Assembly: GCA_030672305.1 (NCBI GenBank)
Contig: DAOVGR010000064.1
Location: 33,080-97,079 of the forward strand
DNA from: Thermoplasmatales archaeon
GTDB lineage: Archaea > Thermoplasmatota > E2 > DHVEG-1
DNA length: 64,000 bases
Reading direction: 5' to 3'
The notes under the pieces are model-generated. The model was not told the origin of the DNA. It saw nothing but the letters and a program-made list of their open reading frames with translations, and did not search any database. Position 1 is the first letter of the stretch. Each line of letters begins with the position of its first letter. The translations under genes were made by a program, and so were the position numbers. Shown here in pieces: positions 18,983 to 37,642 of this stretch.

Positions 18983-19029
18983 TTAATAATTCACCAATGC
19001 TGTAATGCACCCAAAGTTAAAATACTTTC

Positions 19030-19329: not shown

Positions 19330-19367
19330 CCAGACATCTAAATCCCAAATATTAAATTTTGGTTTTT

Positions 19368-19865: not shown

Positions 19866-19965
19866 TGAAAGGCCTTAATTACAAATTGTTTTTAACCATT
19901 TCTCCCAAAAATATTATAAATACCCCATCCTTACACTACAATTCTCACATCTGGTGTTATGGTCT

Positions 19966-20331
19966 ATGGCAAAGAAATATACTAAGACAAATCCTGCTCT
20001 TACAGCATTAATTCACGAGCTGAAGAAGCAGGCAAATGAAAATGATGCACCTATTTGGAAAGATATAGCGTTAAGACTAGAGAAATCTTCGAAGAACTGG
20101 TCAGAGGTTAATCTTGATAGAATAGATAAGTATACAGGTGAAAAAGAAATAGCTCTTATACCAGGCAAGGTATTATCCAATGGAAATCTGTCTAAAAAAG
20201 TTTCAATTGCTGCTTGGTCATTTTCTGAGAAATCTCAAGAAAAAATTAAAAATGCTGGCGGCAAATATATGACAATTCAAGAACTTATTAAAAGCAATCC
20301 AAAAGGTAAAGATATTAGAATATTGGGTTAA
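19966..20331 (+). CDS. rpl18e: 50S ribosomal protein L18e
   Basis: KTNP...APIWKDIA...VNL...IPGKVL; likely start ATG 19966. Confidence 0.96.
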   Translation: MAKKYTKTNPALTALIHELKKQANENDAPIWKDIALRLEKSSKNWSEVNLDRIDKYTGEKEIALIPGKVLSNGNLSKKVSIAAWSFSEKSQEKIKNAGGKYMTIQELIKSNPKGKDIRILG

Positions 20332-20333
20332 TT

Positions 20334-20747
20334 ATGACAACTATTATTGATGCAAGTGGGGCAATACTTGGTAGACTCAGTACATTTACTGCTAAACGTT
20401 TGCTAAACGGAGAAGAAATTGCTGTAGTTAATTCTGAAAAAGCAATTATATCTGGTAAAAAATCATCAATTAAAAATCGCTATAAACAGAAAAGAGAAGT
20501 CGGGACATACCGTAAGGGACCATTTTATCCAAGGATGCCTGATATGATTGTAAAAAGGACAATTAGAGGTATGATTCCTTATCAAACACCTCATGGCAGA
20601 ACTGCCTTTAAAAGGTTGAAATGTTATATAGGTGTTCCAAAGGAATTTGAAGGGGGAAAATTTGAAAGTATTAAGGCAGCTGAAAAACAACCTATTGATT
20701 ATTTAACAATTAAAGAATTATCAAAATCATTAGGAGCAAAGATTTAA
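20334..20747 (+). CDS. rpl13: 50S ribosomal protein L13
   Basis: [12 protein letters not shown]...GPFYPRMPD...RGMIP. Confidence 0.97.
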
Positions 20748-21151
20748 TGGCTAAAAAGGTAATAAATACATCTGGAAAAAGAAAAACTGCTGTTGCAAGA
20801 GCAAACGTTCAAAAAGGAACTGGGCTTGTGAGAATTAACAGCAAACCTGTTGAGCTTTATGAGCCTGACATTGCTCGTTGGAAAATACTTGAGCCAATAA
20901 ATATCGCAAGTGATCATGTAAGTAAAGTAAACATTGATGTTAGTGTACAGGGAGGTGGTTTTATGAGTCAAGCAAATGCAGTTAGAACAGCTATTGCTAA
21001 AGGACTAGTAGAATTTACGGGGGACCCAAGTTTGAAAATTGCTTTTTTAGACCATGATAGAAGCTTACTTGTAAGTGATTCAAGAAGAAAAGAACCGAAA
21101 AAGCCTCTTGGACGTGGTGCAAGAAAAAAGAGGCAGAAGTCATATAGGTAA
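20747..21151 (+). CDS. rps9: 30S ribosomal protein S9
   Basis: [11 protein letters not shown]...GGGFMSQA...[11 protein letters not shown]. Confidence 0.98.
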
Positions 21152-21201
21152 GTAAATAACTTACTGCGAAATCATTAAATATTCCAATTGTATTCTACTT
21201 T

Positions 21202-22323
21202 TTGATAATTATGGATCCAATTGAGGAATTTTTAAAAAATAAAGGTAAGGTTACTCAAAAAAACTATAGGTGGGTTTTAAAACAATATTTCGATGATATT
21301 AAACAAGATCCAGAGGTTTATTTTCAAAGTAATAGGAATTTTAAAGATGATATTCAAAACTGGTGGAACATTCATAAAAGCGAAGTTCCAAAGACCAGGA
21401 ATACAAAACTTGCAATACTCAGAGGACTCTTTGAAGAATACTCAAAGATAATTAGTGATTTACCACCTAAGTATTTTAAGAAACTTAGAAAACAGCAAAA
21501 AGGATCCAAAAAAGCAACAACTGATCATATTTTGAAAAAAAATGAATTTAAAAAAATATTGGCACATGGAACTATCAAAGACCGCGCTTTTTTTCTTTTT
21601 TTAATAAGTTCAGGTTGCAGAGTTGGTGAAGTTTTACAATTAAAACTTACAGATGGATTTGTTAAACGATTGGAGAACAATCCACCACAAATAGAGATAT
21701 CTGGAAAATTCACTAAAACTGGAAATCCAAGAACTGTGTTTATCACACCAGAATCAAAGGAAAACCTTGAAGAATGGCTGAAAATCAGAAATGATTATAT
21801 TAGAACAGCAGTCAAAAAATGCAACAAAGAAAAAGGTGGAATATGCACAAAAGATCCAAATGATGATCGGGTGTTTCCATTCAGTTATGATGTTGCTTGG
21901 ACTTCCTGGAATAGGTTAGTAAAAAAAACTGGTCTTGGTGAAAGAGATGAAACAACCAATAATTACAAACTGCATATTCATTGTTTAAGAAAATTCTTTT
22001 TAAGTAAGTTGAAACTTGAAATTCCTGAAGTTGTTGCAGAGATACTTGCAGGTCATGAAGGATACTTGCAGGGAACATATGATAAATACTCATTAGAAAC
22101 ACAAGCAGAATTATACAAGAAGGGAATGAAACATCTTACTATCTTTGATACAACTTCAAGAGAACTTGAGGAGACAAACGAAGAAGTAAATAAGCTTAAA
22201 TATCAAATCGATAACAAGGACAAACAAATCAATGAAATGCAGGATATGATGCAAGAGATGAAAGCACAGATCCTGGAGCTTAGACTTGAGAAACTTGAAA
22301 AGATTAATGGATTAAAAAAGTGA
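21202..22323 (+). CDS. Tyrosine recombinase/integrase of element 2
   Basis: SSGCRVGE, KTG, HCLRKFF, LAGH...TY; likely start ATG 21211. Confidence 0.94.
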   Translation: MIIMDPIEEFLKNKGKVTQKNYRWVLKQYFDDIKQDPEVYFQSNRNFKDDIQNWWNIHKSEVPKTRNTKLAILRGLFEEYSKIISDLPPKYFKKLRKQQKGSKKATTDHILKKNEFKKILAHGTIKDRAFFLFLISSGCRVGEVLQLKLTDGFVKRLENNPPQIEISGKFTKTGNPRTVFITPESKENLEEWLKIRNDYIRTAVKKCNKEKGGICTKDPNDDRVFPFSYDVAWTSWNRLVKKTGLGERDETTNNYKLHIHCLRKFFLSKLKLEIPEVVAEILAGHEGYLQGTYDKYSLETQAELYKKGMKHLTIFDTTSRELEETNEEVNKLKYQIDNKDKQINEMQDMMQEMKAQILELRLEKLEKINGLKK

Positions 22324-22440
22324 TATCATTTCCAGCTGACCTGTTGGCCATTTTTGATATCATTTTTGCTGTGATATCGTCTGGATCCGGTGCTATTGTG
22401 ATATCAAAACAATGATCAGCTGGATCTACAAATGATATCA
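22321..22440 (+). repeat. Phased palindromic site E, overlapping the integrase stop codon
   Basis: TGATATCA at 22321, 22355, 22399, 22433 (34/44/34 steps); 22355-22440 is 64/86 identical to site F in reverse complement. Confidence 0.9.
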
Positions 22441-22458
22441 TTGGTTGATTTTAAATCC

Positions 22459-23562
22459 CTAATAATTATTCTGTAAACTATAGTTATCGCTATAAATATG
22501 AAATTTTGAATAAGCAATCTCTATTGGAATTGCAAGTTTTATAAACTCTTTATTGTCCCATCCCCACTGTATCAATTCCTTAATTTCACCTAATGATAAA
22601 TCATAATCTTTATAAAAAAAAGATTTACTCCAAATTCTACAAAATTCTTCAAGATATGAATCAACAGATTTCTTATCTTTTAAATTAAATAGTTTATTCA
22701 TAGCATCAGAAATATTTTTTCTAATTCTTATTTCTTGATTAATGTTAATTTCTTTTTTTAGAGGATAACCAAAAACAAAAAAGAATAAAGTTTTTGATGT
22801 ACAAATATCAGCACCCTCATATAAGTTTAAAGCAATATAATTAAAAAAAATACCATATAAATGATCCTTAATTTCACTTAATATATTTTTTATTTTACTG
22901 CTTTTAGTGTTTCTTTGTAAAATATCTATAAGCTTGTCTCGTTCTTCAAAAAATCTTTTTTCCTTAATTTTATATATTTCATCCAGAAATATATCAATTT
23001 TCTTTAAATTATTCATTACCAAATTTCGATCATTCTGATTAAAAATATTCTTAAATAAATCATCTGATAATCCATAAATTATATGTTTTTCTAAATCATC
23101 TTTGCCTTGAAAAGCTTTTATTTTGTCTGATGGAAAAAAATCAATAGATTCTTTATTCTGATTTTTTAAACTCTCTTTATATGCAATATCATTTATAAAG
23201 TATTTAACTCCTTTATCATGGCCCTTACCATGTCCCTTTTTATGTATTAAATCTAGATCTTCTTCTCCCAATAGCTTTAGATAATATTTTAATTGTCCCC
23301 GATTCTTAATAATCCCTCTTTTAATAACATTATTTTTTTCTAATGACTCTAATCTTTTTCCAAAAAAGGTTTTCATTCGCGTTATATTCCGTTTCAATTC
23401 TGGATCATCTTTTATTTGTTTATTTGATGCATATTCAATTTGAAGTGCATATCTGATAAATCTAGGTGGTAATCCTTCTTCTTTGTATATACTCAAAAGA
23501 TTAAGGATACTTTTTGTAATTTTATTTTCAAATGCATCTTCAAATGTAATTGCTTTTTTTAT
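22459..23562 (-). CDS. Hypothetical protein, possible N-terminal winged helix, transcribed divergently from the core operon
   Basis: Track ORF extends in frame to a probable ATA start at 23562 behind AAGGAG. Confidence 0.6.
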   Translation of the reverse strand: MKKAITFEDAFENKITKSILNLLSIYKEEGLPPRFIRYALQIEYASNKQIKDDPELKRNITRMKTFFGKRLESLEKNNVIKRGIIKNRGQLKYYLKLLGEEDLDLIHKKGHGKGHDKGVKYFINDIAYKESLKNQNKESIDFFPSDKIKAFQGKDDLEKHIIYGLSDDLFKNIFNQNDRNLVMNNLKKIDIFLDEIYKIKEKRFFEERDKLIDILQRNTKSSKIKNILSEIKDHLYGIFFNYIALNLYEGADICTSKTLFFFVFGYPLKKEININQEIRIRKNISDAMNKLFNLKDKKSVDSYLEEFCRIWSKSFFYKDYDLSLGEIKELIQWGWDNKEFIKLAIPIEIAYSKFHIYSDNYSLQNNY

Positions 23563-23653
23563 GGTTATCTCTCCTTAGTTGTGGAATTTTAAATGATACA
23601 AATCACACAAATGATATAAAATAATCATTATTTAATCTTAGTGGAACTTATTT

Positions 23654-23806
23654 ATGAAAAATGATAAAATAACATCAATAGCGCTCAGTAAAAACGAACA
23701 AAATCTTATCGATTCCTATAGGAAGAAATATGGGTTGTCTAGATCTGCATGTATTCGCTTAATTCTGAATGATTTTTTTATTAAAAATCAGGGAGTAACA
23801 CAATGA
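23654..23806 (+). CDS. RHH-like small regulator (not in track)
   Basis: ITSIALSKNEQNLIDSYRKKYGLSRSACIRLIL. Confidence 0.7.
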   Translation: MKNDKITSIALSKNEQNLIDSYRKKYGLSRSACIRLILNDFFIKNQGVTQ

Positions 23807-23952
23807 TCTCTAATGAACTTCTTGATAAATATCCAAGAGTTCGTAAGTTTCTAAGAAAACACCCGGAGATGAATCTAGATTCAGCATTAGTTTATACAGA
23901 AAATAAACTTAAGGAATCAAGTAAAGCCGATTCCCCTATTTTGAGAAGATAA
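23803..23952 (+). CDS. Small hypothetical protein (not in track)
   Basis: 49 aa, ATGA-coupled to the upstream gene, GGGAG SD. Confidence 0.55.
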   Translation: MISNELLDKYPRVRKFLRKHPEMNLDSALVYTENKLKESSKADSPILRR

Positions 23953-24049
23953 ACCACTCTTCTCAAAGTAGATCTTAAATATAATTTCAGTAGGAGGAAG
24001 TCAAATTGATGGGATATAATAAGATAAATAAGGTGAGGAGAGGTCTAGG

Positions 24050-24286
24050 ATGCACCAAAAAGATCTAATTCCTTTTAATGGTTTATTTGTTGCTATTGGG
24101 ATCTCATGTTATTCTAGAACAGCGCCTTTCTTTTTTTATGGAGAATTATTAGAAATTAATGAAGCAAATATTCTTCTAAAGTTGGATAAAAATTCAGGAT
24201 TAAAATCCATAAGAATCGCAGAAATTGTTGATATCCATTTGGATCCGAAATACAATAACATAAACAGGAGGAAAAACAGGCATTGA
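24050..24286 (+). CDS. Sm/LSm-like small protein
   Basis: FYGELLEINEANILLK...IRIAEIVDI; paralog of 17046-17288. Confidence 0.55.
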   Translation: MHQKDLIPFNGLFVAIGISCYSRTAPFFFYGELLEINEANILLKLDKNSGLKSIRIAEIVDIHLDPKYNNINRRKNRH

Positions 24287-24531
24287 TCATATTTATTATT
24301 ACTCAAAGTGAAAGTGATTTTTCCGATATTTACAATTCTATTGGTGCTGTTCGCAATAAACTTAAAATTACAAAAGCTTGTGAGTTAACATTGAAATCTC
24401 CAGTTACAAAAAAGAAGATAAAAAAAACGGTAAAACTAGTTGGTATATTGTATAAAATAATTGACGGTGAAATGGATACAATTTTTAGAACAACTCAAAG
24501 ATTGGAGAATCGACACCGAGGGAAACAATGA
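24283..24531 (+). CDS. Hypothetical protein
   Basis: Overlap-coupled on both sides. Confidence 0.55.
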   Translation: MIIFIITQSESDFSDIYNSIGAVRNKLKITKACELTLKSPVTKKKIKKTVKLVGILYKIIDGEMDTIFRTTQRLENRHRGKQ

Positions 24532-25901
24532 CTTATCAAGTCTCAGAACCTGTAAAAAATGACAAAGGAGAATTATGTTGGTTAATTGATAAGGGAAATA
24601 AACCAGTATCTACAGTTTCAAAAGATAAATCGATAAAACAGATAATAAAACAGAATAATCCAATCGATTACAAACAAGTATTTGAATTAAAACCAGAAGG
24701 ATTATGGCAATGTCGAAAATGTGGAGCGCAAATGCAAAGCAGTCCAAATCCACCTTTAGAATGTTACAAAGAACAAGGTGGTTGTGATAGATCTACAAAT
24801 TTTGAAATAGTAACAAAAACAATAAATACTGATTTATGGAAATTACCAAATTGGAATGACATCCCACTAGATGATATAGATATTCAAGGATTATTTGTAG
24901 ATATAAAAAACTTGATGAAACAATGCTTGATTTTTGTAGAAGATATACACTATACAATACTTACATTATGGATTATAAGCACATGGAAATTAGAATCATG
25001 GAATACTGTAGGTTTCCCAACATTTTTAGGAATGGTAAGCAGTGGTAAATCAAAATGCCTAGACTTCATAAATGAAATAGGATACCGAATGATAAACAGT
25101 AGTGGAATAACATTTCCAGCAATAGTAAGAGCATCGCACTATCATAATGCTGGAATATTAATGGATGAAGTCCAAAATAGATTAAATCCTAAAGATGAAT
25201 CAGGACGAGAATATATTAATTTCATAAAACCAAGTTATAGACGTGGAAATAAATATACAGTAGCTGACAAAGAAGATCAAGAAAACCTACTTAGTTATAG
25301 AAATTTTGGATTCAAAGCATTTGCAGGTGAAAGAGGTTTTGATCTAGGTTTAATGGATCGAACAATACTTTTTGAAATGGAACAGGATTACCCAGAGGTT
25401 ACTAATTTTAAAGAAATAGAAACAGATTTTGACATTATGAGAACACGATTGCTAAATTATAGATATAAAACACAAGAACCAGAATCATTGGATACTAGGA
25501 TATTTAAAAACAGTAGAACACATGAAATATTTGAAAGTATAATAGCAACAGGAAAACACATAGGAACAGTTACAGATGATATAATTGATTATGCAAAAAA
25601 ATGTGAAATTGAAAAAGAGGAAGAATTACAAGATACAATTGAATGGAATATATTAGAAATAATTAAAAATAAGGAATGCAACGAAACATTAGACGATGCA
25701 CCAACAGAAACACAGTATGGGGATATAGTAACAGCATTAGGATGGGAACCTGGAAGAAAAAGCTCACAATCATTAGGATATATTATTACAAAAAAATTCA
25801 GACTAATAACTAAAAGAAAAACAAGTGGGACTGTTATCCTTTTGACCAATCCTAAAAACGAAAGGAAGTTAAAATATCTTTTTAAGAGGTATAAATTATG
25901 A
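24528..25901 (+). CDS. Putative replication protein: Zn finger, P-loop NTPase, C-terminal HTH-like region
   Basis: CRKC...CYKEQGGC; GMVSSGKS Walker A; ILMDE Walker B. Confidence 0.65.
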   Translation: MTYQVSEPVKNDKGELCWLIDKGNKPVSTVSKDKSIKQIIKQNNPIDYKQVFELKPEGLWQCRKCGAQMQSSPNPPLECYKEQGGCDRSTNFEIVTKTINTDLWKLPNWNDIPLDDIDIQGLFVDIKNLMKQCLIFVEDIHYTILTLWIISTWKLESWNTVGFPTFLGMVSSGKSKCLDFINEIGYRMINSSGITFPAIVRASHYHNAGILMDEVQNRLNPKDESGREYINFIKPSYRRGNKYTVADKEDQENLLSYRNFGFKAFAGERGFDLGLMDRTILFEMEQDYPEVTNFKEIETDFDIMRTRLLNYRYKTQEPESLDTRIFKNSRTHEIFESIIATGKHIGTVTDDIIDYAKKCEIEKEEELQDTIEWNILEIIKNKECNETLDDAPTETQYGDIVTALGWEPGRKSSQSLGYIITKKFRLITKRKTSGTVILLTNPKNERKLKYLFKRYKL

Positions 25902-25904
25902 ATT

Positions 25905-26152
25905 ATGAATACTTCTATGAATACTTTATGAATACTTTTATGAATACTTTTCTCCGAGAAATGAATACTATGTATACTTTGAGTGTAAATATACCCTTTT
26001 TTATTAAAATAAATAGGTTGTATACAACTATATTACTTATTATAATAGACAGACGTGAGTGTGTGTGTATTGTCATAAAGTATTCATTGTATTCATTAAC
26101 AGATATGAAGTATTCATGGAAGTATTCATTAACTATCCATTTGACTATTCAT
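25905..26152. repeat. Convergent 10-bp iterons flanking an AT-rich spacer, putative origin of element 2
   Basis: ATGAATACTT at 25905, 25917, 25928, 25940 (variants 25961, 25970); AAGTATTCAT at 26078, 26108, 26120 (variants 26087, 26143). Confidence 0.75.
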
Positions 26153-26169
26153 TTTTTGGAGATTGTTGA

Positions 26170-26319
26170 ATGATCTCTGCAAGTACAAAAATTCAACTAT
26201 TGAAAAACAGGATATCTAGACTTGAAAATGAGATTCATAAGAGACAGATTGAAATTGATAATTGTAAGGAGCAACTTGAACGTTTAGATAATAGAATAAA
26301 TTCAGAGGTGAAAGTCTAA
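26170..26319 (+). CDS. Small coiled-coil protein (not in track)
   Basis: 49 aa, heptad pattern; its end carries the GAGGTGA SD for the ASCH gene. Confidence 0.55.
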   Translation: MISASTKIQLLKNRISRLENEIHKRQIEIDNCKEQLERLDNRINSEVKV

Positions 26320-26320
26320 A

Positions 26321-26665
26321 TTGCTTCTTTTCAAACCTGAGCATATAAAACTGATTCAACAAGGTCTTAAAACTCAGACTAGACGTATCTGGAAAAAACC
26401 TCATTGTAAACCTGGATCTGTTCATAAAGCTAAGACTATGATGCTTTCAAAGGATTATTATGCTGAGCTTTTCATAATCAGTATTCATAAAGAACATTTG
26501 CTTGATATTTCAGATAAGGATGCTTGGTGTGAAGGAGGTTACACCCGGGAGGAATTTCTAAACAAATGGGATGATATCAATCCTAGATTTCCTTCTTCTA
26601 CAAATCCAGAGGTCTATGTTGTGCCTTTTAATCCTATTGTGAAATCTTTCAGGATTTTAGATTAA
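26321..26665 (+). CDS. ASCH domain protein
   Basis: GLKTQTRR ASCH motif; TTG start. Confidence 0.87.
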   Translation: MLLFKPEHIKLIQQGLKTQTRRIWKKPHCKPGSVHKAKTMMLSKDYYAELFIISIHKEHLLDISDKDAWCEGGYTREEFLNKWDDINPRFPSSTNPEVYVVPFNPIVKSFRILD

Positions 26666-26699
26666 CTATAATTAAATTTTACATTATTTTACATGAATT

Positions 26700-27720
26700 T
26701 GACGTTAGTATACTATTTTTTTCTAGGAGTAGTTGACAGTATTGTAATGTTTTGATGGTGCTGTGTCCACCTAGGGATGGGGATATATAATATATTGTAT
26801 AGATTTATTGATTCTCTAATCTTCTAATATCTTACTTTATTAGGTGTATAGAATAGATTCTTTTAGTATCCTATAGGTTATATCTAAAGAAAGTTAAAGC
26901 TGTTTAAAGTTGGTATACTGAAATCTCTAAGAAGAAACTTAAAGTAATGCAATGTATCAAAAGTTCACTGTCCACCATAGAGAGAGATATCATTATAGTA
27001 TATTGATTAATTGATCTCTAATCTTCTATCTATAAAAAACATGGGACTTCATACAGTTATGTTAGAGATCTTCATTCACATTTTCTTCAAGAAAATGAAT
27101 GACTTGTATGTATGTCTTAGAAATGTTTCACCTAGGGATGGGTATAATTTATTATTATTGATTTATTGATCTCTAATCTTCTATCTATAAAATTCATGAT
27201 AAGTTATCAGTATGTATGTAATAGTCATGGAGAATTTCTTCAGGAAAATCAATAATTAATAACTAACTAATCTATTATGTTTTACCTAGGGATGGGGATA
27301 TATAATATTGTTATTGATTTATACTCTAGTCTTATGATAATTGATGGTAATTGATATTGTGGTTATAGCTGGTATACTGATTTTTCCTAGGAAAAATTGA
27401 CAATATTGTACTATTTTGATATTATGGTGTCCCACCTTCGAGAGAGATATCATTATAGTATATTGATTTATATAATCTCTAACTTTGTTATGCAATGTTA
27501 CAAGGATGTTATAGAAATATTTTAAAAATTTCTAGAGAAGATGTTGTATAACCCATTCAATGTTATATGCAATGTCCACCATAGAGAGAGATATCATTAT
27601 AGTATATTGATTAATTGATCTCTAATCTTCTAACTAACTAACTATATATGTTTCACCTAGAGATAGAGTATAATTTATTATTATTGATTTATTGAATCTC
27701 AAATCTTCTAGATGATAAGG
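26700..27720 (+). repeat. Non-coding tandem array of element 2, seven units
   Basis: CTCTAAT-type anchors at 26814, 27016, 27171, 27324, 27477, 27620, 27698; each ~45 bp after a CCACC/TCACC/TACC motif. Confidence 0.92.
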
Positions 27721-27841
27721 TAGATATCGTCACTAGTGACGATTTAAGAGTCTAGGTAATATTCCATAGATTTTTTTTTAAAGGTTGATTATCATCCATG
27801 GATCCAATCGGTTTTTGTATTTGTTTTTCTTATTATAGAAA

Positions 27842-27980
27842 TGCCGTCAAAAAAGAAGATATCAAAAAATGGTCCAGTAAATAATGACGGCAAAATTGAG
27901 TTCGAACCAGCTGGACCTGATCTAGTTTTGCCGTCATTTCCTGGATGGCCCGATCTTGATCATGTATAGTTTTGACGGCA
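27842..27980. repeat. Phased palindromic site D
   Basis: TGCCGTCA 27842, TGACGGCA 27885, TGCCGTCA 27929, TGACGGCA 27973 (43/44/44 steps). Confidence 0.9.
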
Positions 27981-28035
27981 ATATTTAAGATTAAAAGAGA
28001 ATGAATAAATTTTATATTACAGATTTAAAAGGAAT

Positions 28036-28890
28036 TTAGTATGGAGTACTAGGATGTGGAATTACTCCGATAACATATAAAATTGAAAGGATGACTGCAA
28101 TGAGAACAATGATAGTTTTTTCATGATCTGAAATTCTATGACTGAATTCTCCAATCTTTTCTTTAAAAGTTTTAGTTTTTAAGACTCCATTTGTACCTAT
28201 AAATTCATTAAATAATTTCATATTTTCTTTAAGGATTTTACCAAGTAAAATATAATCAATACTATCCGTTTTAAAGCATTCACTTATTTTATAATACACA
28301 TTATTGACATCATTATTGTTGCAATAGATATTTAAATTTTCAAGAAAAACTACAAGATCATAAAGGGTTTTATAAATGAATTTTGCTCTATGATATCTAT
28401 AATCAGTATAGGACCTTATTGATGATGGATTAAGTCTTTTTTGAGGTGCATTAAAACAATAAAGGAGTCTTGATAAATTATAATAAATATGCATTAAAAT
28501 TTCATATTTTCTATTTTCATCAGGTTCTTTAGATAACTCTTTAAAAAACTGATTAATTATGATATATTCATTATATTTGTTATAGCGTATATACAACCTT
28601 TCATAGATTATAACACAGAGTGAAATAATTAATAAAATAAAACCAGAATAGATAAATCCAACAGTGACAATGATCATCAATAATAATTCAATTAAATTAT
28701 CAACTATTAAATTTCCAGAACCAAATAAAAAAAGGAAAAACACACCCAATACTAAAAAAACACTGGACAAGATAATAAGTCGCATTCCCCAAATATCTAG
28801 TTTTATGATTCTATTACCTATTTTTTCATAATTTTGGATCGTGATTTCTTCAGAATTTTTAGAAATTTTTTTTTGATTTGTTTTTTTCAA
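28036..28890 (-). CDS. Hypothetical membrane protein (cargo)
   Basis: Two N-terminal and one C-terminal TM helices; TTG start after GGGGGA. Confidence 0.7.
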   Translation of the reverse strand: MKKTNQKKISKNSEEITIQNYEKIGNRIIKLDIWGMRLIILSSVFLVLGVFFLFLFGSGNLIVDNLIELLLMIIVTVGFIYSGFILLIISLCVIIYERLYIRYNKYNEYIIINQFFKELSKEPDENRKYEILMHIYYNLSRLLYCFNAPQKRLNPSSIRSYTDYRYHRAKFIYKTLYDLVVFLENLNIYCNNNDVNNVYYKISECFKTDSIDYILLGKILKENMKLFNEFIGTNGVLKTKTFKEKIGEFSHRISDHEKTIIVLIAVILSILYVIGVIPHPSTPY

Positions 28891-29145
28891 ATAATCCCCC
28901 TGCTATATTTTGAACTTTTAATTGACTCTTAAATGTTTCTAAAAACAGGATATGTATAAGGAATTAAGAAAATTACGTAATAAAAATTTGTAACCCTAGG
29001 ATAGTTTTTACATTTGATGACTTTTTCAGAGTATCATTGTTTTTCTATAATTTTTTTATTTTTTTCTTCTAAAGGTTCTCCTGGTTCAAAATATTTAAAT
29101 AGTAGTCTACTAATAGACTATTGATAGACTATATTATTAGGACAG

Positions 29146-29310
29146 ATGGCAACTATGACAGCAAAAAAAACATCAGGCCGATTAATACTCAAAGAAATCA
29201 AATTCGAACAGATCTACCAACGAACAGTTAGCAGATGCAATGAAACAAGTGGTAAAGTCACAGTACCAAGTAAACTTATAGGTAAACGTGTCTATGTTGT
29301 AGTCGAATAA
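29146..29310 (+). CDS. DUF2080-like small protein (not in track)
   Basis: MATMTAKKTSGRLILKEIKFEQIYQRTVSRCNETSGKVTVPSKLIGKRVYVVVE. Confidence 0.75.
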   Translation: MATMTAKKTSGRLILKEIKFEQIYQRTVSRCNETSGKVTVPSKLIGKRVYVVVE

Positions 29311-29393
29311 ATCCTAGTATTATTACTGTTATAGTTCTGTCTTTTTTTGGTGAGGTGGGGTGGAAATATTAATTTCATTGGAGTTGTAGAAAG

Positions 29394-31016
29394 ATGAAGA
29401 GATTATTGATAATTGGTGTAATTATAGCTGTTTTCATACTCATAGGAAGTCTATTCTATACAGGTATAATCCCAGGGCTTGGAGTCCTGGATAACGATAC
29501 CAATACAATATCAAAAACCCATATATGCATCAAAGGAAATGGAAGAAGTGAACTACTGGATAAAAAAGGATACATCCTGAGTTATAAAAATGATGAATTC
29601 AGTGAAAAAATAAGCATCATAGGTCAACTGCAAAAAACTGGTTCTGATTGTGCTCATTGTGGTTTTTTGTATGAAAAAGTAAGATATCTTGTTTATCTGA
29701 AACTGGATTCTTCGCATGAGTATGAACTTATGAGTTCACCAGGAGATACAAAGAGATATTTTAGTAATCCTAACCCTGGTGAGATGTATAAACCTGCTCT
29801 TGGATGCTGGAAGGACAATGCAGGGAACCCCAGAGATGATGGATATCAAAGACCTTATGATTTTTACTTGGTTGGAAATGATTATTCAAATGGCGCAATC
29901 AAAGCGGTAATCCAATGTAAACTAGACTTGAGCATGTGGGATGATAAAGGTTCAAAATGGTACACCATGGCCATTGATGAAGCATTCCTATACAGCGGAT
30001 ATGGTGGACTACATCTCCCCAGGGGACTTGAAGATGAACTAGATAAACCATATAGCACATTTGAAGTAGGACAAACAGTCAAAATAGGAGTAGAAACCGC
30101 AAAAGGTGGACAAACCGGAGATAACCAAAACTGGCGCGTAACACTCAATAAACCCTATTCTGGAAACATTGACAGTCCTGAAGATGGAACAGTGGTGGTT
30201 TCTCAGAATTTCCCGGATGATTGTGATCCTAGTAATACATTTTTTGAATTTACTGTTACTGATGAAATGGCCAGGCAATCAATGAGTAATTCTTATCCGT
30301 ATACTGTTAGGATTTGGAATACACTTCTCCCCAAGGGTTCACTTCAGATTGATTTTGTTGATTTTGTTGCTGGTTGTCCCAGTGATGTTGATTTTGTAGG
30401 ATCAATAAAGGTCAAAGTTGGTGAAACTACAACTGTTGATCTTTCTGCAACTGTAAGCAGTGGATCCAGTGCAAGTATTGATTATTTCAGAGTTGCAGTG
30501 ATCTATGGAACCAATGATGCATTGCTTCCAGGGGATCATAGCAGTAGTCTTTGGATTATTCATACAACACCAGTTGGAAATGATGATAGCAAAGCATGTG
30601 GTGTTCCACAGACTATCCAGTTTAAAGCAGATAGGGAAGAATTTGTAACTGTTCATGCAAAAGCATTTGATACTGATGGAAGGGGATCTAAAACAACCCG
30701 GACATTTACAATGAAGATATGGGGTGAATCTGGTGAACCACCAGATGAAACCATTGCAGATGAAACAGGTGATGCTGATTATGGTGGTGGACATACAAGT
30801 GGATGGCATCCTTGGGATCCCAGTGAAGGAACCTGGGAACAAGGACTCCCAATAAAAATTGATACAACAGGAGTTATCATTGCTATAGTTATCCTGGCTA
30901 TTTTTGCATTGATTGCCTTACTTATTCCTAATCTGAATCAATATATCCGGTTCGCAATCATACTTGTTGGAGTTGCAATTGCAATCATCCAATATCTATT
31001 ATTCTTCATATCCTGA
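29394..31016 (+). CDS. 540-aa membrane-anchored surface protein
   Basis: N-terminal signal/anchor, beta-rich ectodomain with 8 Cys, acidic Gly-rich linker, two C-terminal TM helices. Confidence 0.75.
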   Translation: MKRLLIIGVIIAVFILIGSLFYTGIIPGLGVLDNDTNTISKTHICIKGNGRSELLDKKGYILSYKNDEFSEKISIIGQLQKTGSDCAHCGFLYEKVRYLVYLKLDSSHEYELMSSPGDTKRYFSNPNPGEMYKPALGCWKDNAGNPRDDGYQRPYDFYLVGNDYSNGAIKAVIQCKLDLSMWDDKGSKWYTMAIDEAFLYSGYGGLHLPRGLEDELDKPYSTFEVGQTVKIGVETAKGGQTGDNQNWRVTLNKPYSGNIDSPEDGTVVVSQNFPDDCDPSNTFFEFTVTDEMARQSMSNSYPYTVRIWNTLLPKGSLQIDFVDFVAGCPSDVDFVGSIKVKVGETTTVDLSATVSSGSSASIDYFRVAVIYGTNDALLPGDHSSSLWIIHTTPVGNDDSKACGVPQTIQFKADREEFVTVHAKAFDTDGRGSKTTRTFTMKIWGESGEPPDETIADETGDADYGGGHTSGWHPWDPSEGTWEQGLPIKIDTTGVIIAIVILAIFALIALLIPNLNQYIRFAIILVGVAIAIIQYLLFFIS

Positions 31017-31122
31017 AATATTTAGACTTGCCAAAATATCTAGAAGAAGGGCTAATGGCAAGAGGTTAAACTATTCACCTTCATAATAGCCCTCTTCTCT
31101 CCTTAAAAAAAGAGGTAAAAAA

Positions 31123-31521
31123 ATGAATCTAACAGATCTAACTGATTTATGCTGTGGAATCACTTTTCCAATAATTGGAATAGTTGTTACAGTGTTTTTG
31201 CTGTATCTTAGAAAGAAAGGATATTCTTTCAATCTTAGAAGTCTATGGGATGATGATGATGCTGTAATGGTTATTTCCAGAGCTTTTGCAATTGGCGTTC
31301 CATTGATCCTGGTAACAATTTTTCATACTGCTAATGCTTTTGGGATTGGAATATGGGAACCACTTCTCAGTATAGCATTAGCATCAGCAATTATAATTTC
31401 TGGTGCTGTTATCGCTGTTCTTGGTCTAAAAGTAGGTTTTTATTATCCGATGATGCTGATTTTCATCATCTGGGTTCTATTGATCTATGTTTATCTTCAA
31501 TTTGAAGCTAACATAATATAA
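31123..31521 (+). CDS. Small four-TM membrane protein
   Basis: Hydrophobicity pattern; AGAGGT SD. Confidence 0.75.
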   Translation: MNLTDLTDLCCGITFPIIGIVVTVFLLYLRKKGYSFNLRSLWDDDDAVMVISRAFAIGVPLILVTIFHTANAFGIGIWEPLLSIALASAIIISGAVIAVLGLKVGFYYPMMLIFIIWVLLIYVYLQFEANII

Positions 31522-31544
31522 AAAAAATAATAAAAAAAAGAGTT

Positions 31545-31853
31545 TTAGATATCTATACCAAATTGATGCATCAACTGATACCCACGATTCTTGAAATAAC
31601 CCTTTTCTAAAATCTGATTGAATAATAAATCATCGATATTATCGTTTATTATTCCCAGGTAATCACAACCTTTGGAATCTTTTTCTGGTTCTCCCTTTTC
31701 ATCTGTAAGTTGATTTTTCAAAACTTTATCATAGATCTTCCAGGTAACAAGAACACCATCCACAAAAGTTAATTGATTCTCTTGATCATCTGCATAATAT
31801 CTTTCTGTGTATTCACTTAAACTTTCTTTTTTTTTCTTTTTCAGTTCTGTCAA
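31545..31853 (-). CDS. Hypothetical protein
   Basis: 102-aa ORF with GAGGTG SD. Confidence 0.6.
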   Translation of the reverse strand: MTELKKKKKESLSEYTERYYADDQENQLTFVDGVLVTWKIYDKVLKNQLTDEKGEPEKDSKGCDYLGIINDNIDDLLFNQILEKGYFKNRGYQLMHQFGIDI

Positions 31854-31869
31854 GATTCAACACCTCTTT

Positions 31870-32094
31870 TTAATCTATTAAGAAATACTGATTCATTTTG
31901 TCGAATTTATCTTCTTTTAATCTTCGGATCATACTTCGAAGAGTCTCTTTAAGTTTTTCTAAAGGATCTTTATCCTTTTTCCACGTGTCACTGATCTCAT
32001 AAAGGAACTCTAGCACATCTTCAGAGCTCATATTCTTTATTTCTTCTAAAGCTTCTATTTTGTCTTCATTTTCCATATGTTTCAATTCTCCCAA
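31870..32094 (-). CDS. Hypothetical acidic helical protein
   Basis: 74-aa ORF in operon with the previous gene. Confidence 0.55.
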   Translation of the reverse strand: MGELKHMENEDKIEALEEIKNMSSEDVLEFLYEISDTWKKDKDPLEKLKETLRSMIRRLKEDKFDKMNQYFLID

Positions 32095-32140
32095 TTTTTT
32101 AAATTCATATTATAAAACTACTATTTAAATCTGCGTAGAA

Positions 32141-32338
32141 ATGTTTAAGTATGCGCAAAAGTATTTTAAGACTATGCCTGATTTAAAGAATTCTATGGGA
32201 TCTAAACCATTGAATATCAGTCTACCAGAAGAACAAAGAGATGAACTTAAAAGATTAGCAGAAAAAGAGAATAGAGCTATCAGTCATCAAATAATTCATA
32301 TGATGAAATTTTATATCAAACATAAAGATAAGATTTAA
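32141..32338 (+). CDS. Arc/CopG-like ribbon-helix-helix regulator
   Basis: LNISLPEEQRDELKRLAEKENRAISHQII. Confidence 0.85.
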   Translation: MFKYAQKYFKTMPDLKNSMGSKPLNISLPEEQRDELKRLAEKENRAISHQIIHMMKFYIKHKDKI

Positions 32339-32355
32339 TGATGAAAAGGTAGTAT

Positions 32356-32441
32356 TGATATCATTGTTAGATCCAACTGATCAGTGTTTTGATATCACTT
32401 TGTTGCGGGATCCTGTGGATATCCAACCGTTTTTGATATCA
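32356..32441 (-). repeat. Phased palindromic site F, inverted copy of site E
   Basis: TGATATCA at 32356, 32390, 32434 (34/44 steps). Confidence 0.9.
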
Positions 32442-32449
32442 TGATTAAT

Positions 32450-33148
32450 TTATTTAGTATTCACACATGTAAATTTAATTACATTTGGTGCAAAATTAAT
32501 ATCTTTTTCTAAAATAGAAATAGCTTTATTTGCTTCCTTAGAAAAATCTTTGACACGGGTATAACAATTAATAATAAATTCAATACGAGAATGAGTTGCC
32601 AATTCACAAAACGTATCTTTTAAAATTACATTTTTAAATCTAATTGATTTAATTGCTTGATGAATTTGAAAATATTTTTCAAAAACTATTCCATCCTCTA
32701 AATTTAATTCAATTAATAAAAAAGTTATTTTTTCTCTTAAAGCCGGAACAATAACTCTTATCATATTCAAAGACAGTTCTGAAAGATAATTTGATAATTT
32801 TTCAATAGGATTTCCTTTTAAAAAATCATATATTTTTTCATATAAAAACTTATAAAAATTTTCAGTTTTTTTATCCTCTTCAATAAGCTTATTAAAAGAT
32901 TTAATAAGATAAGAATCTCTTTCAAATTTAGAATCAATTTCAGCTATTTTTTTTATTTTTTTCAATGATTTTTCTACTACATATGTAATTTTGTGTCTTA
33001 TTTGCTCTTGTGTATTACTTATAGTACTTTCACAAAAAAAACAATCATTTTTCTCCTTTTTTAATAAATTAGTTACAAAAGAATGATTCTTATCAAATTT
33101 ATTTAATAAAGGTATAATAAGACTATAATCCAAAGTATAATATGCCAA
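32450..33148 (-). CDS. Hypothetical protein, weak PIN-like N-terminus
   Basis: YTLDYSLIIPLL...DKNH resembles the first PIN strand and helix. Confidence 0.45.
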   Translation of the reverse strand: MAYYTLDYSLIIPLLNKFDKNHSFVTNLLKKEKNDCFFCESTISNTQEQIRHKITYVVEKSLKKIKKIAEIDSKFERDSYLIKSFNKLIEEDKKTENFYKFLYEKIYDFLKGNPIEKLSNYLSELSLNMIRVIVPALREKITFLLIELNLEDGIVFEKYFQIHQAIKSIRFKNVILKDTFCELATHSRIEFIINCYTRVKDFSKEANKAISILEKDINFAPNVIKFTCVNTK

Positions 33149-33877
33149 TTATCCACCTAATAATCCTAATACAACATTATAATCAGATGATGTTATATAG
33201 TTAGCATCAGGAATTTTATTCATTTCCAAATAACTACAAGAAATAGATCTTTCAAGTTCTTTTAATTTAATCTTATTCCTTTTATAAGCTTCCATTTTTA
33301 AAACTAAATAAAGTGAAAAATTGAATTGTCTTACAATTTTTTTAGGATTCATATCAACTAAAATATCTTTTAAATTTTCTTCAATTTTGTAAAATAATTG
33401 ATCTGTTATCATTAATTCATTTATTTTAGAATTTTTCTTCCATATTCTATATCCAATTTCTCTTCTTAAAATATTAATGTTTGAAAACAATTTTAAAATG
33501 GCAAAACGAATAACTTGTTTTTTAAGAGTAGGATCTAATTTTTTAAATGATGTTTCTGCTGATTCAAAATATTTCTTTAAATCAGAGTCTAAAAATATAT
33601 CCCTAACATTATCTTTAAATTTTTCAAGATCGCTCATAATATTAATAGATATTAAATCGGTAAGCGAATCAATGAGTTTTTCTTGTTGTTTTGTATCACT
33701 ATTCAATATAAAATCAAAAACTTTTGCTTCGTGAGATTTTCTAATTCTTTTTAAAATATTTTTACCACTGACCATTGGTTCATATAGTATTACTGTTTGG
33801 TTATACATCTCATCAGAGAAATCATTTAATACTCCAACTGCTGATAAATAATTATCTTTATCTGATGAATTTCCCAT
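33149..33877 (-). CDS. Hypothetical protein, weak PIN-like motifs
   Basis: C-terminal D..YITSSD; directly abuts the next gene. Confidence 0.4.
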   Translation of the reverse strand: MGNSSDKDNYLSAVGVLNDFSDEMYNQTVILYEPMVSGKNILKRIRKSHEAKVFDFILNSDTKQQEKLIDSLTDLISINIMSDLEKFKDNVRDIFLDSDLKKYFESAETSFKKLDPTLKKQVIRFAILKLFSNINILRREIGYRIWKKNSKINELMITDQLFYKIEENLKDILVDMNPKKIVRQFNFSLYLVLKMEAYKRNKIKLKELERSISCSYLEMNKIPDANYITSSDYNVVLGLLGG

Positions 33878-34023
33878 TTATTGAACCACCAAACAGAATT
33901 ATAATGCTGTTATTATATTATATAGGCTTCTTATTATATTTAATTTTACTTACACTTTTGTTGTTCTTAGAGTAATAAAATAGTATAAATAAATCTTTTT
34001 ATTAAATTTTTATTCTTTTTTAT

Positions 34024-34073
34024 TACCGTCATTTGTTAAGATCCTGCGATGGACCAAGTCTTTTTTAATAGCA
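34024..34073 (+). repeat. Degenerate site G, related to site A
   Basis: TACCGTCA then GATCCTGCGATGGACCA, matching GATCCTGCGATGGTCCA in site A. Confidence 0.65.
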
Positions 34074-34112
34074 ATTTAACATTTTTTAATTAAGGTAAAA
34101 CTTGAACATTCT

Positions 34113-34226
34113 AATTCTTCAGGAGGAAATAAGGAGTAAAAATGCCTTAAAGGTATGTTTTTCTACTGTAAAACCAGGAGTTTAGTTGAAAAAACAGAGT
34201 TGTAACAGGGTTTATTTTTATTCATG
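34113..34226 (+). other. Conserved non-coding element shared with element 1
   Basis: 94/110 identical to reverse complement of 10021-10133. Confidence 0.85.
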
Positions 34227-34401
34227 ACTTATTTTAAAAAGAGCTGAGACAAATACTCAGTTGGTTGAGGGTTTATCATTGACCTGAAAGCTTTGTTTTA
34301 TCGTCATATGCCGAAAATTGGTATAATTGATAATTGGTCTATAATCACAACGCCTTATTATATTTCATAATAACATCTATTAACAAATAGTTTATTTTAA
34401 T

Positions 34402-35070
34402 TTGATTTTGAATATGAGCCAAAAAGAATTATTAAAAATAGTATTTGGTAGTCTTGCCCTAGCATTTAGTGGTATTGTAGTGATTTTTGGTTTAATGAAA
34501 GATATGCCAATGATGTTAGCATGTCTTTCTGTTTCTCTTGGTTTATTGTCTGCCTATCTGGTTTTTGAAGCTAGAGTAGAACGAGAAAAGAAACTTCAAG
34601 AAGAAATTCGAAGAAAATTAACTATAATGAAATGGGAAAATGATTCAAATCTAGAGCTATTAAAAAAATTTAAAGATAGAATGGATAAACTATATCCTAA
34701 GAAATTATTGGATAAAAAATTACAACAACCAAGTAGTCTAAAGTATTATCTTACTTCAGAAGAAATAGAAATAATCCGCGATGGTAAAATATGGATTCAA
34801 AAACAACATTGTTTGTATGATAGTGCAATTCAAGTTTTAGAAATTGGTCATTATTTTAACAATGAATTTATTGACGTAATCAAGGAAAGTATTAAAAAAT
34901 TAGATGATTTAAACCAACAGAAAGATTTTGTTCAATCATGGATTATTGAAAAAGGTTTTAGGCTTAATCCCGATGAAATGAACGATCTACGTAATAAAAT
35001 TAACGAAGCAGATGAAATAAGTAAGAAACTGCAAAAAATGATATTACATGAACAAAATACTATTCTTTAA
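34402..35070 (+). CDS. Hypothetical protein, two N-terminal TM helices plus helical domain
   Basis: Hydrophobic N-terminus, coiled coil. Confidence 0.7.
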   Translation: MILNMSQKELLKIVFGSLALAFSGIVVIFGLMKDMPMMLACLSVSLGLLSAYLVFEARVEREKKLQEEIRRKLTIMKWENDSNLELLKKFKDRMDKLYPKKLLDKKLQQPSSLKYYLTSEEIEIIRDGKIWIQKQHCLYDSAIQVLEIGHYFNNEFIDVIKESIKKLDDLNQQKDFVQSWIIEKGFRLNPDEMNDLRNKINEADEISKKLQKMILHEQNTIL

Positions 35071-35162
35071 AAATAACAACTCTCTCTTTCTACTTTTTTT
35101 TATTAAAGTTTATAAGTAATTTTTCTTTATCTATAAAAAAAGTAGGAAATGGGGGAGGAAAA

Positions 35163-36192
35163 ATGAAAGGATTTTTTGATAAAAAACATTATTATGAAAT
35201 TGTATTACCAATAGATAATTTAGAGTTGACTTATAAAAGTTTTACTATCGGTAAAGTAAAATTTTTTGAATACAATAAATATCATTACCAAAAATTTATG
35301 AAGGAAATCCGAAAAAAAATTAATCGAAATCAATATTATAGAGATAAACCTCAAGCAAAAAAAAATGTAATTAAAAATATCTCAAGATACTATAAACAAA
35401 ATATTAAAGATAATAAAAAAAAAAATATGTAGCATTACAACATCTTATGGTCATATAGATGATGCTTATCTACGTGCTCTTCATGATACGAAAATTGCAA
35501 TAAATGTTTTAAAATTATACCGTTATCCAAATGATGATTTTTATAAAAGATATTTCGGTATCCAGGGTGAAATAATCCCAAGAAATGCACGAGCAGTTCT
35601 TACAAAAGCACCTCCAGATAAGTATCGCCCTACTGTTGAAGCTTATGGTTGTAGTTATCCTTATATAATTAATAATCAAAGAATAAATTTTATGAAACAA
35701 AATGGATTCAATTTACTTAATAATCTAATCAAAAAGAAAAAACATAATGCTTTAGATAAAAGGATTATTTCTGCTATTAATTGGTTTGGAGAAAGTTTCA
35801 ACTCTCATATAGCTCTAAGGGAAAATTATAAATCAATACATCAAACAAAAAGAATTGGATCAGGACGGGCAAAAAATTATGGTTTATCTGAACCACAGAG
35901 ACTTGTTTATTGTATAACAGCATTGGAAGGTTTATTTTCTTTTAGTAATTTTGATGATTATAAAGAAATAGGTAAAAGAATTTCAAAGATTCTTGGGCAA
36001 GATATTACTGTAGAGTATAAGAGATTATACAAAATCAGATGTAGTATTGTTCACAGAGGTTTAAGCTATGTTGATAAACGAGATCTTAATTCTATTTTTC
36101 ATTTAACCAAAGTAGCAATAATAACTTTAATTAAAAGAAAAGGGCGGTTAGGAATTAATAATGAACCAGATCTTAGGAATTGGTTAAAATAG
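35163..36192 (+). pseudogene. HEPN-domain (ApeA-like) gene split by a frameshift in an A11 run
   Basis: ORF 35163-35432 and a frame open from 35425 to 36192 join if one A of 35415-35425 is removed (342 aa); ITALEGL and RCSIVH (RxxxxH). Confidence 0.75.
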
Positions 36193-36475
36193 TTTTTTTC
36201 TACAGTTATCAACTTTAACATATACTGCAAATATATGGAAGCAATATTAAAATCCAGGCTTTTAAAAAAAAATTAAAATTGTATAGCTAATAACTAGAAG
36301 GTAATTTTAATATACCCATTGGTTATAACAGTTGAAAAAATAATGGAAGATATTCAATGACAATTATTAACACGATTACATACAAAAGGTTTATATACTA
36401 TAATAAAAACACTCAAAATAATAAAAAAAAGAATGATTTAATCTCAGTTGGCAATAATATAATATAGGTGATATT

Positions 36476-36700
36476 GTGATAATTCCTGTAAGATGTTTTA
36501 CTTGTGGAAAGGTTATTAGTGACGTTTATGAGGATTACAAAAAGCGGTATGAAGATTATAAAAAAGCGATAAGTGCTGGCGAAAAACCAAAAGAAACTCC
36601 CAAACAGATTCTTGATAATCTTGGTCTTGATAGATACTGTTGCAGACGTATGGTCCTAACTCACGTTGATTTAATCGGAGAAGCAGCACCTTACGAATAA
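36476..36700 (+). CDS. rpoN: DNA-directed RNA polymerase subunit Rpo10 (N)
   Basis: [12 protein letters not shown]...RYCCRRM. Confidence 0.97.
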
Positions 36701-36763
36701 AAATAAAATCCATACTTTTATCAATTTTTATTTATTACATAGCTTTCCGATTAGTTTAATTTT

Positions 36764-36838
36764 GGGCGCGTGGCCTAGCCAGGATATGGCACTGGCCTTC
36801 TAAGCCAGTGATCGCGGGTTCGAATCCCGCCGCGTCCG
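36764..36838 (+). tRNA. tRNA-Arg (anticodon TCT)
   Basis: Acceptor GGGCGCG/CGCGTCC, anticodon arm CTGGC-CTTCTAA-GCCAG, GGTTCGAATCC T-loop. Confidence 0.97.
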
Positions 36839-37063
36839 TACCTCATCATACCGCTAATTTCTACTCGGAACAATAATTTATTCTGGTGTTTTTCATATTT
36901 CCCCACCGCCATTATAAACCTTAATTTTTTCATAGGTATGAAAATAATATCAATATTCTCAATATTTGTCAATAAATAATTAACAGAAATTTATAAATAT
37001 GATTTATAATAGTATAATATATAAAAATATTTACCATGTTATAATAGAGGTGAAGAACCAATA

Positions 37064-37195
37064 ATGATAATATATCACTGTAGAAACTGTAAAACTAATT
37101 TTGAGTTTCCAATGAAATTATCAGATGGATATGATCTTACACTATTAGTTTGTCCAAAATGTAAAAGCAATGATTGGGGAAATATTGCTGAATAA
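37064..37195 (+). CDS. Small Zn-ribbon protein (not in track)
   Basis: CRNC...CPKC, 43 aa, GAGGTGA SD. Confidence 0.65.
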   Translation: MIIYHCRNCKTNFEFPMKLSDGYDLTLLVCPKCKSNDWGNIAE

Positions 37196-37198
37196 GTT

Positions 37199-37642
37199 TT
37201 ATTCTCTAACACAGTTTAAAGTTAATATCATATTTTTTAATTTCATTATTTCATTATAATTATTATCTTTATCAATACCAGGTTCCTTTGTTACTGAATA
37301 TTGCTCAAGATGCTCAATATATATGTTTACAAGATGGAAAAAAGATAAAATGTGATTATCGATTGATATTTTATCTGATGAAATTTTCCAAAGGTCAGAA
37401 TTATAGTAATTTAATAATTCATTCAAAGATAAAATAGTATATTGATTGGTCTTGATTTTCCCTTCCTTTATTTTACATAAAAAATCTTTAATAACACAAT
37501 TTTGAAGTTCTAAAATAAATTCTATATCCTTTATTCTCTTTAAATCACTCTTAGATTCATTATTCAAATGAATTTCTTGGTTCTTAAGTAATCTTTGATT
37601 TTCTTCTTCCCTTAATTCCTTTACAATATCAGGTTCTATCAA
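37199..37642 (-). CDS. Hypothetical protein
   Basis: 147-aa ORF; N-terminal EPDIVKEL shared with the histidine kinase. Confidence 0.6.
   Translation of the reverse strand: MIEPDIVKELREEENQRLLKNQEIHLNNESKSDLKRIKDIEFILELQNCVIKDFLCKIKEGKIKTNQYTILSLNELLNYYNSDLWKISSDKISIDNHILSFFHLVNIYIEHLEQYSVTKEPGIDKDNNYNEIMKLKNMILTLNCVRE

Follow-up and report, generated by a model that had tools for sequence, protein, structure and literature searches.

A family of archaeal integrative elements inserted between rps9 and rpoN, with a putative outward promoter facing rpoN

Integration into the 3' end of a protein-coding gene, with replacement of its stop codon, has been described for 14 of 68 thaumarchaeal elements (Krupovic et al. 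2019, PMC6563490), and streptococcal integrative conjugative elements (ICEs), as well as integrative mobilizable ones (IMEs), integrate in the 3' ends of rpsI (encoding S9), rplL and rpmG (Ambroset et al. 2016, PMC4701971). Promoters near element borders have been described as well: in ICEKp1 and ICEclc, a tested outward promoter at the int-distal end reads across attP into int after excision, and the integrated int of ICEKp1 is driven by the promoter of the host gene just upstream (PMC13023037). For pTN3-like integrases of Thermococcales, the host tRNA gene is expressed from an element promoter after integration (reviewed in PMC8371274, which also covers chromosomal inversions associated with mobile elements). 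Here we analyze a 64-kb stretch of DNA from an uncultured sediment archaeon (the window, by which we mean this whole stretch), in which a 15.3-kb island at 21150-36461 separates rps9, the gene for ribosomal protein uS9, from rpoN, the gene for RNA polymerase subunit Rpo10. This island is an integrative element, plasmid-like or possibly a provirus. The source genome is designated G000 and its relatives bear other G numbers.

The locus resembles the thaumarchaeal element NitEve-E2 (PMC6563490) in its tyrosine integrase, its short attachment (att) sequence, its target at the 3' end of a conserved protein gene, its element-derived TAA stop codon and its validation by empty sites. It differs in four respects: the hosts are uncultured Thermoplasmata-type metagenome-assembled genomes (MAGs); the integrases form a different clade; the junction is internal to an operon, with a stop codon that overlaps the next Shine-Dalgarno sequence and a downstream single-copy gene that loses its promoter; and the site has been reused by at least 11 elements. 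With the streptococcal ICEs and IMEs it shares tyrosine integrases at ribosomal-gene 3' ends, including that of S9, and direct repeats that restore the gene end, whereas those elements are bacterial and conjugative or mobilizable, with repeats of 12-54 bp, and no conjugation genes were found here among the larger open reading frames (ORFs) scanned. The targeting of S9 by streptococcal and archaeal integrases is best read as a convergence on the same kind of target. What is new is the integrase clade, the host lineage and an operon-internal target that disconnects a single-copy gene, while the mechanism is already known.

At the left border, the host genes rpl18e (19954-20331, first gene of the operon; Pfam Ribosomal_L18/L27A), rpl13 (20334-20747; Pfam Ribosomal_L13, 8.5e-18) and rps9 (20747-21151, 134 aa; Pfam Ribosomal_S9, 6.4e-38) follow one another on the plus strand. 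The att cores, the arms, the candidate promoters, the T-tract, int, the rpoN Shine-Dalgarno sequence, rpoN and the tRNA-Arg gene described below are on that strand too. The left copy of an 8-bp identity block, ATATAGGT (attL core, 21142-21149), is followed by AA, so that rps9 ends TAT AGG TAA; identity with the empty chromosomal site (attB) ends at 21149, and the final two bases of the TAA stop codon (21149-21151) are element-derived, whereas empty sites have TGA. The right copy (attR core, 36462-36469; element-side invariant block TATAATATAGGT) continues GATATT GTG, giving a GGTGA(T) Shine-Dalgarno sequence (GGTGAT, 36467-36472), which the crossover preserves, and the GTG start of rpoN at 36476. 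Both flanking genes are full length, as had been claimed from the window's sequence in the initial annotation: rps9 by Pfam and by comparison of the junctions, and rpoN (36476-36700, 74 aa) by Pfam (RNA_pol_N, 1.6e-28). The source genome contains a single match to rpoN.

The comparison with relatives is what identifies the island. Thirty relatives were searched with S9 and then by tblastn for RpoN, and 19 loci were compared. In 17 of these, rpoN starts 8 to ~20 nt past the rps9 stop codon, and the two genes are likewise adjacent in G068 and G069, for a total of 19 empty sites. Two genomes of the same genus, G002 and G001, read ...TCATATAGG|TGATATTGTGATAATTCC at the junction, which is the rejoined sequence without the element (TCATATAGGTGATATTGTG across the junction, reading TCATATAGG-TGATATT-GTG). 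In both, blastn finds window positions 19043-21149 contiguous with 36459-37753, and 21150-36458 is missing. The initial annotation had predicted that rejoining would yield TAT AGG TGA TATT GTG, and had stated beforehand that relatives free of the element but without this junction would refute it; when this check was run, G001 and G002, which lack the element, had exactly the predicted junction. G068 and G069, from genus g9, to which the occupied genome G011 also belongs, are empty too, and their junction reads TCATATAGGTGATTTTGTG.

Two points weigh against an integration at this site: the 8-mer ATATAGGT by itself occurs at chance level, with 3 copies in the window versus 3.02 expected from shuffles, and the exact identity block is just 8 bp long here. 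A repeat search of the window found no long direct repeat at the element borders. We nonetheless regard site-specific integration of the 15.3-kb island as virtually certain, because the comparative evidence, and not the 8-mer, decides the matter.

This evidence includes occupied sites, which number 11, five in reference genomes and six on metagenome contigs. Among the loci compared, the two without rps9-rpoN adjacency, G003 (same genus) and G011 (another genus, a one-contig genome), both carry a related integrase there, and G070 and G072, from G011's genus, are also occupied, the copy in G070 ending at a contig edge. In these four genomes, integrases 48-88% identical to that of the window sit ~60 nt past rps9. 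The close integrase is confined to these occupied genomes among 118 genomes of the order, and a contig search with the integrase as query returned the G003 record as its sole match. The occupied metagenome sites were found by protein search followed by inspection of contigs: a search of public metagenome proteins gave ~37 integrase clusters at at least 43% identity, and six of the eight contexts inspected show rpl18e-rpl13-rps9-integrase with the same ~60-nt gap. Scanning JGI metagenome contigs and IMG/VR for the exact attL pattern gave 0 matches. In a maximum-likelihood tree, all ten rps9-adjacent integrases form one clade (support 100/99). The element is thus one of a recurrent family using the rps9/rpoN junction, and the family constitutes a well-documented archaeal integrase clade that targets a protein-gene junction, not a tRNA gene, in a lineage known only from metagenomes.

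The seventh metagenome context, L079 (JGI 3300033149 Ga0366834_1020686; 11.6 kb), carries an integrase 51% identical to that of the window and contains neither rps9 nor rpoN. It presents the right end, the core and the left end in one piece, ...TTTATATA-(64 nt)-ATATAGGTGATT...ACTGCGAAATCATTAAATA...ATG, with 72 nt from TATA box to core and 69 nt from core to the int ATG, spacings equal to those of the window's two ends joined. This unintegrated attP form is that of a clade member, not of the window's own element; with it, attB, attL, attR and attP are all observed for this clade. Empty sites, further occupied sites and the attP form together bear out the claim that a 15.3-kb element integrated at the overlap of the rps9 stop codon and the rpoN Shine-Dalgarno sequence and split the operon. 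The L079 integrase (P0025) is also present in NCBI, labelled as from a 'Deltaproteobacteria bacterium' MAG, which is probably a mis-binned archaeal mobile element.

The target itself is a near-palindrome, AAATCA|TATAGG|TGAT(T/A)T, that spans the final four codons of S9 (K-S-Y-R), its stop codon and the Shine-Dalgarno sequence of rpoN. uS9 has a highly conserved C-terminal tail, and AGGTGAT is a match to the 16S rRNA 3' end. An exact 16-mer, AAATCATATAGGTGAT, is retained in 10 of the 19 empty relatives, across many genera. We infer that three overlapping constraints (S9 C-terminal codons, stop codon and Shine-Dalgarno sequence) hold attB constant, much as structure does for the tRNA anticodon stem-loop, and would provide a 16-18 bp near-palindromic target just as stable and symmetric. 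The identity block varies with the lineage: it is 8 bp, with the stop codon turned into TAA, in the genus of the window, and 12 bp (ATATAGGTGATT), with TGA kept, in genus g9.

Two inverted arms flank the core, each at a distance of 13 nt. The left arm, ACTGCGAAATCATT (21163-21176), is conserved in all attL and in the attP contig, and its inverted partner, AATGATTTAATCTCAGT (36432-36448), shows 88% mean identity among six right ends. Both arm patterns (right, AATGAT.TAATC.CAGT; left, ACTG.GAAATCATT) hold AAATCAT, the left half-site of attB. We regard the arms as candidate integrase-binding sites. The dyad GTAAGT-N5-ACTTAC (21149-21165), to which the initial annotation drew attention after the left core, is present and specific to this element. 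It is broken in the other four attL (G003, G011, G070 and G072), and by our own estimate DNA this rich in AT would show a 6-bp dyad close to any chosen point about 10% of the time; we treat it as chance and reject it as a functional feature.

A nested subclade occupies a different kind of site. The integrase P0037 (L072, 9929-11062, on a 132-kb contig of JGI 3300035688; 44% identity) lies at the start codon of an FG-GAP gene. Its core, AATCATACAGGTGAT, is similar, its arm, ACTGCG-AAATCATTAAATA, is the same, and genes for DNA polymerase A and HNH lie next to it. The case resembles a switch of target or the use of a secondary site.

The integrase gene int (21211-22323) is co-oriented with rps9 and begins 60 nt past the stop codon of that gene. 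Its product is an intact tyrosine recombinase of 370 aa (Pfam Phage_integrase PF00589, 1.4e-9; PHROG 1 integrase, 2e-28). Residues R137, K169, H257, R260, H282 and Y290, which make up the R-K-H-x-x-R-H-Y signature, are invariant in five sequences. In attL as in attP, 69 nt separate the core from the int ATG downstream of it; int is unsplit by integration and attP is outside its ORF, so that the integrase is of the classical non-suicidal type rather than the SSV type. Direct-repeat flanks together with a rejoined empty site were found by comparison with G001, G002, G068 and G069. The pTN3-type integrases, in contrast, are 'suicidal': attP lies inside int, int is split, and the targets are 5' halves of tRNA genes, whereas here int stays whole and a junction between protein genes is targeted. 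The integrase and its att partner are compact and of defined geometry, and might be tried out as a tool for the genetics of Thermoplasmata-like archaea.

Promoter signals occur at both ends of the element. In a genome-wide motif survey, TTTATATA and TTTAAATA are concentrated between about -62 and -28 relative to ORF starts. The preferred upstream context of this TATA motif is R-N-A-A, as expected of an archaeal TATA box that has a transcription factor B recognition element (BRE) in front of it. At the left end, a TATA-like box, ATTAAATA (21174-21181), lies 37 nt upstream of the int ATG and is invariant in five attL; its position matches both the TATA boxes of 20-odd paralogous integrases and the genome-wide peak, and int has no Shine-Dalgarno sequence. 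These features suggest that int probably has its own promoter and a very short or absent leader. Just upstream of the int ATG is a T-tract (TTTTT, 21199-21203), with 4-9 T at this place in all five attL, which is a possible terminator of the truncated ribosomal operon. The proposal in the initial annotation that int may be transcribed from the ribosomal operon is not needed: as int has a putative promoter of its own, read-through from the operon is possible but not required. As in ICEKp1, the integrated int sits just downstream of a host gene.

At the right end, an outward-facing TATA box, TTTATATA (36390-36397), with a purine-rich BRE-like stretch (CAAAAGG) upstream, matches the genome's promoter motif. 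From the box it is 72 nt rightward to the core and 86 nt to the rpoN GTG; a transcription start site is predicted near 36420, and no element gene lies downstream of the box. Each of the five occupied reference genomes has a TTTAWATA box at -86 relative to the rpoN GTG, and the attP contig has one at the corresponding offset (6/6 right ends). Mean pairwise identity among the six right ends is 0.96 in the box, as against 0.41 upstream of it and 0.46 across the 34-nt spacer; the arm reaches 0.88 and the core 1.0. rpoN is essential. We judge it reasonably probable that this box is an element-supplied promoter for rpoN. The claim that rpoN needs such a promoter, made when the window was first read, has accordingly gained a consensus TATA box at a fixed position in occupied genomes, and the support it has is from sequence only. 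When the element is excised, the same box would read toward int across attP. Compared with ICEKp1 and ICEclc, which are bacterial, target tRNA genes and were studied experimentally, the case here is made by a conserved archaeal TATA motif and a BRE-like stretch only, and in the integrated state the box faces an RNA polymerase subunit gene with no other evident promoter.

Taken as a whole, we consider the following account very probable. The element entered by site-specific recombination, through the tyrosine recombinase, between its attP and attB of the chromosome, with strand exchange within the shared ATATAGGT, probably in its TATAGG spacer. The arms on either side of the core would bind the integrase. 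A crossover there keeps the S9 sequence, with an element-derived TAA, and leaves rpoN its Shine-Dalgarno sequence and GTG. After integration, int would be transcribed from its box at -37, and the outward TATA box 72 nt inside the right end would stand in for the operon promoter that rpoN has lost; once the element is an excised circle, that box would read across attP toward int.

Of the ways in which this account could be wrong, the one that survives best concerns the right-end box: it may exist mainly for the expression of int across attP in the circle, with rpoN transcription a by-product or supplied by another promoter. In the attP contig the box does point at int, 141 nt upstream of its ATG, and 3'-end promoters that serve int only after excision are documented in ICEKp1, ICEclc and ICEEc1 (PMC13023037). 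Yet int already has the conserved TATA-like box at -37, rpoN is a single-copy essential gene that has lost its operon promoter, so that some promoter must lie in the right end, and in G011 there is no alternative for rpoN except read-through from one small upstream ORF. The two roles of the box are, moreover, not exclusive, and we hold a box that mainly serves int to be possible though unlikely.

Two observations also speak against a promoter for rpoN carried by the element. The second element in the window (described below) has no consensus TATA box at the equivalent offset, just TTTTATAA 121 nt from its core, so that an outward promoter is not a general feature of such elements. In G011, the small ORF is co-directional with rpoN, ends 155 nt upstream of it and could feed transcription into it. 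With these points in mind, we see even chances for the fullest version of the element-supplied promoter, in which a portable promoter has taken over rpoN transcription in the integrated state, serves int across attP once the element is excised, and has made the host dependent on element DNA, permanently so in G011. If true, a mobile element re-wires a core transcription/translation operon and compensates with a built-in promoter. The occupied genomes are in any case a natural test of an archaeon's tolerance to having rpoN uncoupled from the ribosomal operon.

The layout in G011 is the most extreme. On its contig C1, rps9-attL-int lies at about 561.9 kb (minus strand; locus L057) and attR-rpoN at about 1804.0 kb (plus strand; L058), 1.24 Mb apart. 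Because rpoN is single-copy in this genome and so far from rps9, co-transcription with rps9 is impossible there. The arrangement fits one large inversion that had one of its breakpoints within the element; it may also be an assembly error. pTN3-type integrases themselves drive such inversions. A comparison of the two loci (60 kb and 39 kb) for shared repeats found just two multi-copy repeats of ~190 bp, far from the ends, and none that would account for the rearrangement, and G011 compared with five congeners is a patchwork of host segments and multi-copy repeats.

A second alternative is that the element is a fixed, immobile remnant of one ancestral integration and that the empty lineages never had it. 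What weighs against a mobile element is the left half-site, which reads AAGTCA in both occupied genomes of the genus (window 21138-21141 and the G003 attL) versus AAATCA when the site is empty; the change, to a synonymous Lys codon, might lower excision, and its presence in both genomes favors a common remnant. The integrase is nevertheless intact with all its catalytic residues, as are both att sites and both arms, and a free attP form of a clade member exists. S9 of the source genome is 97% identical to that of the empty G002 versus 94% to that of the occupied G003, and G003 carries different cargo DNA behind an integrase that is 88% identical. In view of this, we find a fixed remnant improbable. 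There is next to no prospect that the 8-bp repeat is a coincidence and that the island arrived by tRNA-Arg targeting, by transposition or through deletion in relatives: the 8-mer is indeed no more frequent than chance predicts and a tRNA-Arg(TCT) gene (36763-36839; ARAGORN) lies 290 nt to the right, but comparison with two empty genomes places the borders, to the exact base, at the 8-mer, the tRNA gene is contiguous with rpoN in empty-site genomes, eleven independent occupied sites have the same junction, the attP contig has the same core, and 0 of 24 paralogous integrases have a tRNA gene within 1.5 kb. With the core in the rps9/rpoN junction, the tRNA gene outside the element and the paralogues lacking a nearby tRNA gene, tRNA-Arg was rejected as the true target.

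The cargo (22324-36389) is not common to other rps9-site elements. It includes genes for a 457-aa Rep-like protein (24528-25901), an ASCH protein (26321-26665), a 540-aa membrane protein (29394-31016) and a ribbon-helix-helix (RHH) protein (32141-32338), and a repeat array at about 26700-27700. Pfam and PHROG scans of the cargo found no match to capsid or terminase, and no match to a conjugation (type IV secretion) module among the larger cargo ORFs. Other members of the clade carry MCM, Prim-Pol or a syntenic 458-aa protein. Because conserved integrases and att arms go with varying cargo, the module that they form is a cassette common to different replicons.

The element in G011 may have cargo of another kind. 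At L057 4787-9610 (C1 about 547.3-552.1 kb), 9-15 kb from the rps9-site integrase, is a head-tailed-virus module with genes for an intein-containing large terminase, an SPP1-type portal and a Mu F-like protein. This element may be a large provirus, because L057 1-13000 has no DNA match in five congeners. Many scattered multi-copy repeats of 100-400 bp occur in genus g9 (G011, G068-G072), for example matches to L057 13000-17100 and L058 9100-11750, and some genomes of this genus have up to 20 integrase paralogues.

Paralogous integrases in relatives of the same archaeal family (30-43% identical; loci L030-L055) show a similar placement. Several are found 69-105 nt downstream of a co-oriented housekeeping gene, be it RtcA, a member of the arginase family (probably agmatinase), DUF63 or a radical SAM gene of Elp3-like appearance. 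Within this archaeal family, the integrase family as a whole seems to favor the 3' ends of protein genes.

The window holds a second element, 11.1 kb long (7939-19042) and in inverted orientation, which is missing from G001 and G002. Its tyrosine integrase (17717-18982, minus strand) is about 29-31% identical to that of the rps9 element and lies 48 nt downstream of a DUF5611 gene (19030-19329, minus strand). The core, TTT(A/C)CCAAATTCCTTTTT, is found at 7921-7938 and 19041-19058, and integration swaps the last codons of the DUF5611 gene (...KEFGKRKQ-stop here versus ...KEFGKIKKPK-stop in G002). The host block DUF5611-SLOG-rpl18e-rpl13-rps9 is thus bracketed by two elements. Both integrase types also flank this block in G003 (contig C45, L060, 5501-10067; 87.5% identical to window 17826-22309), and the DNA beyond each integrase is unmatched in the window. 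Within the window, 10024-17313 and 24018-36461 have modules in common, among them an ASCH gene (84% over 333 bp) and parts of the repeat array, while the integrases and targets differ, which points to modular exchange of integration cassettes.

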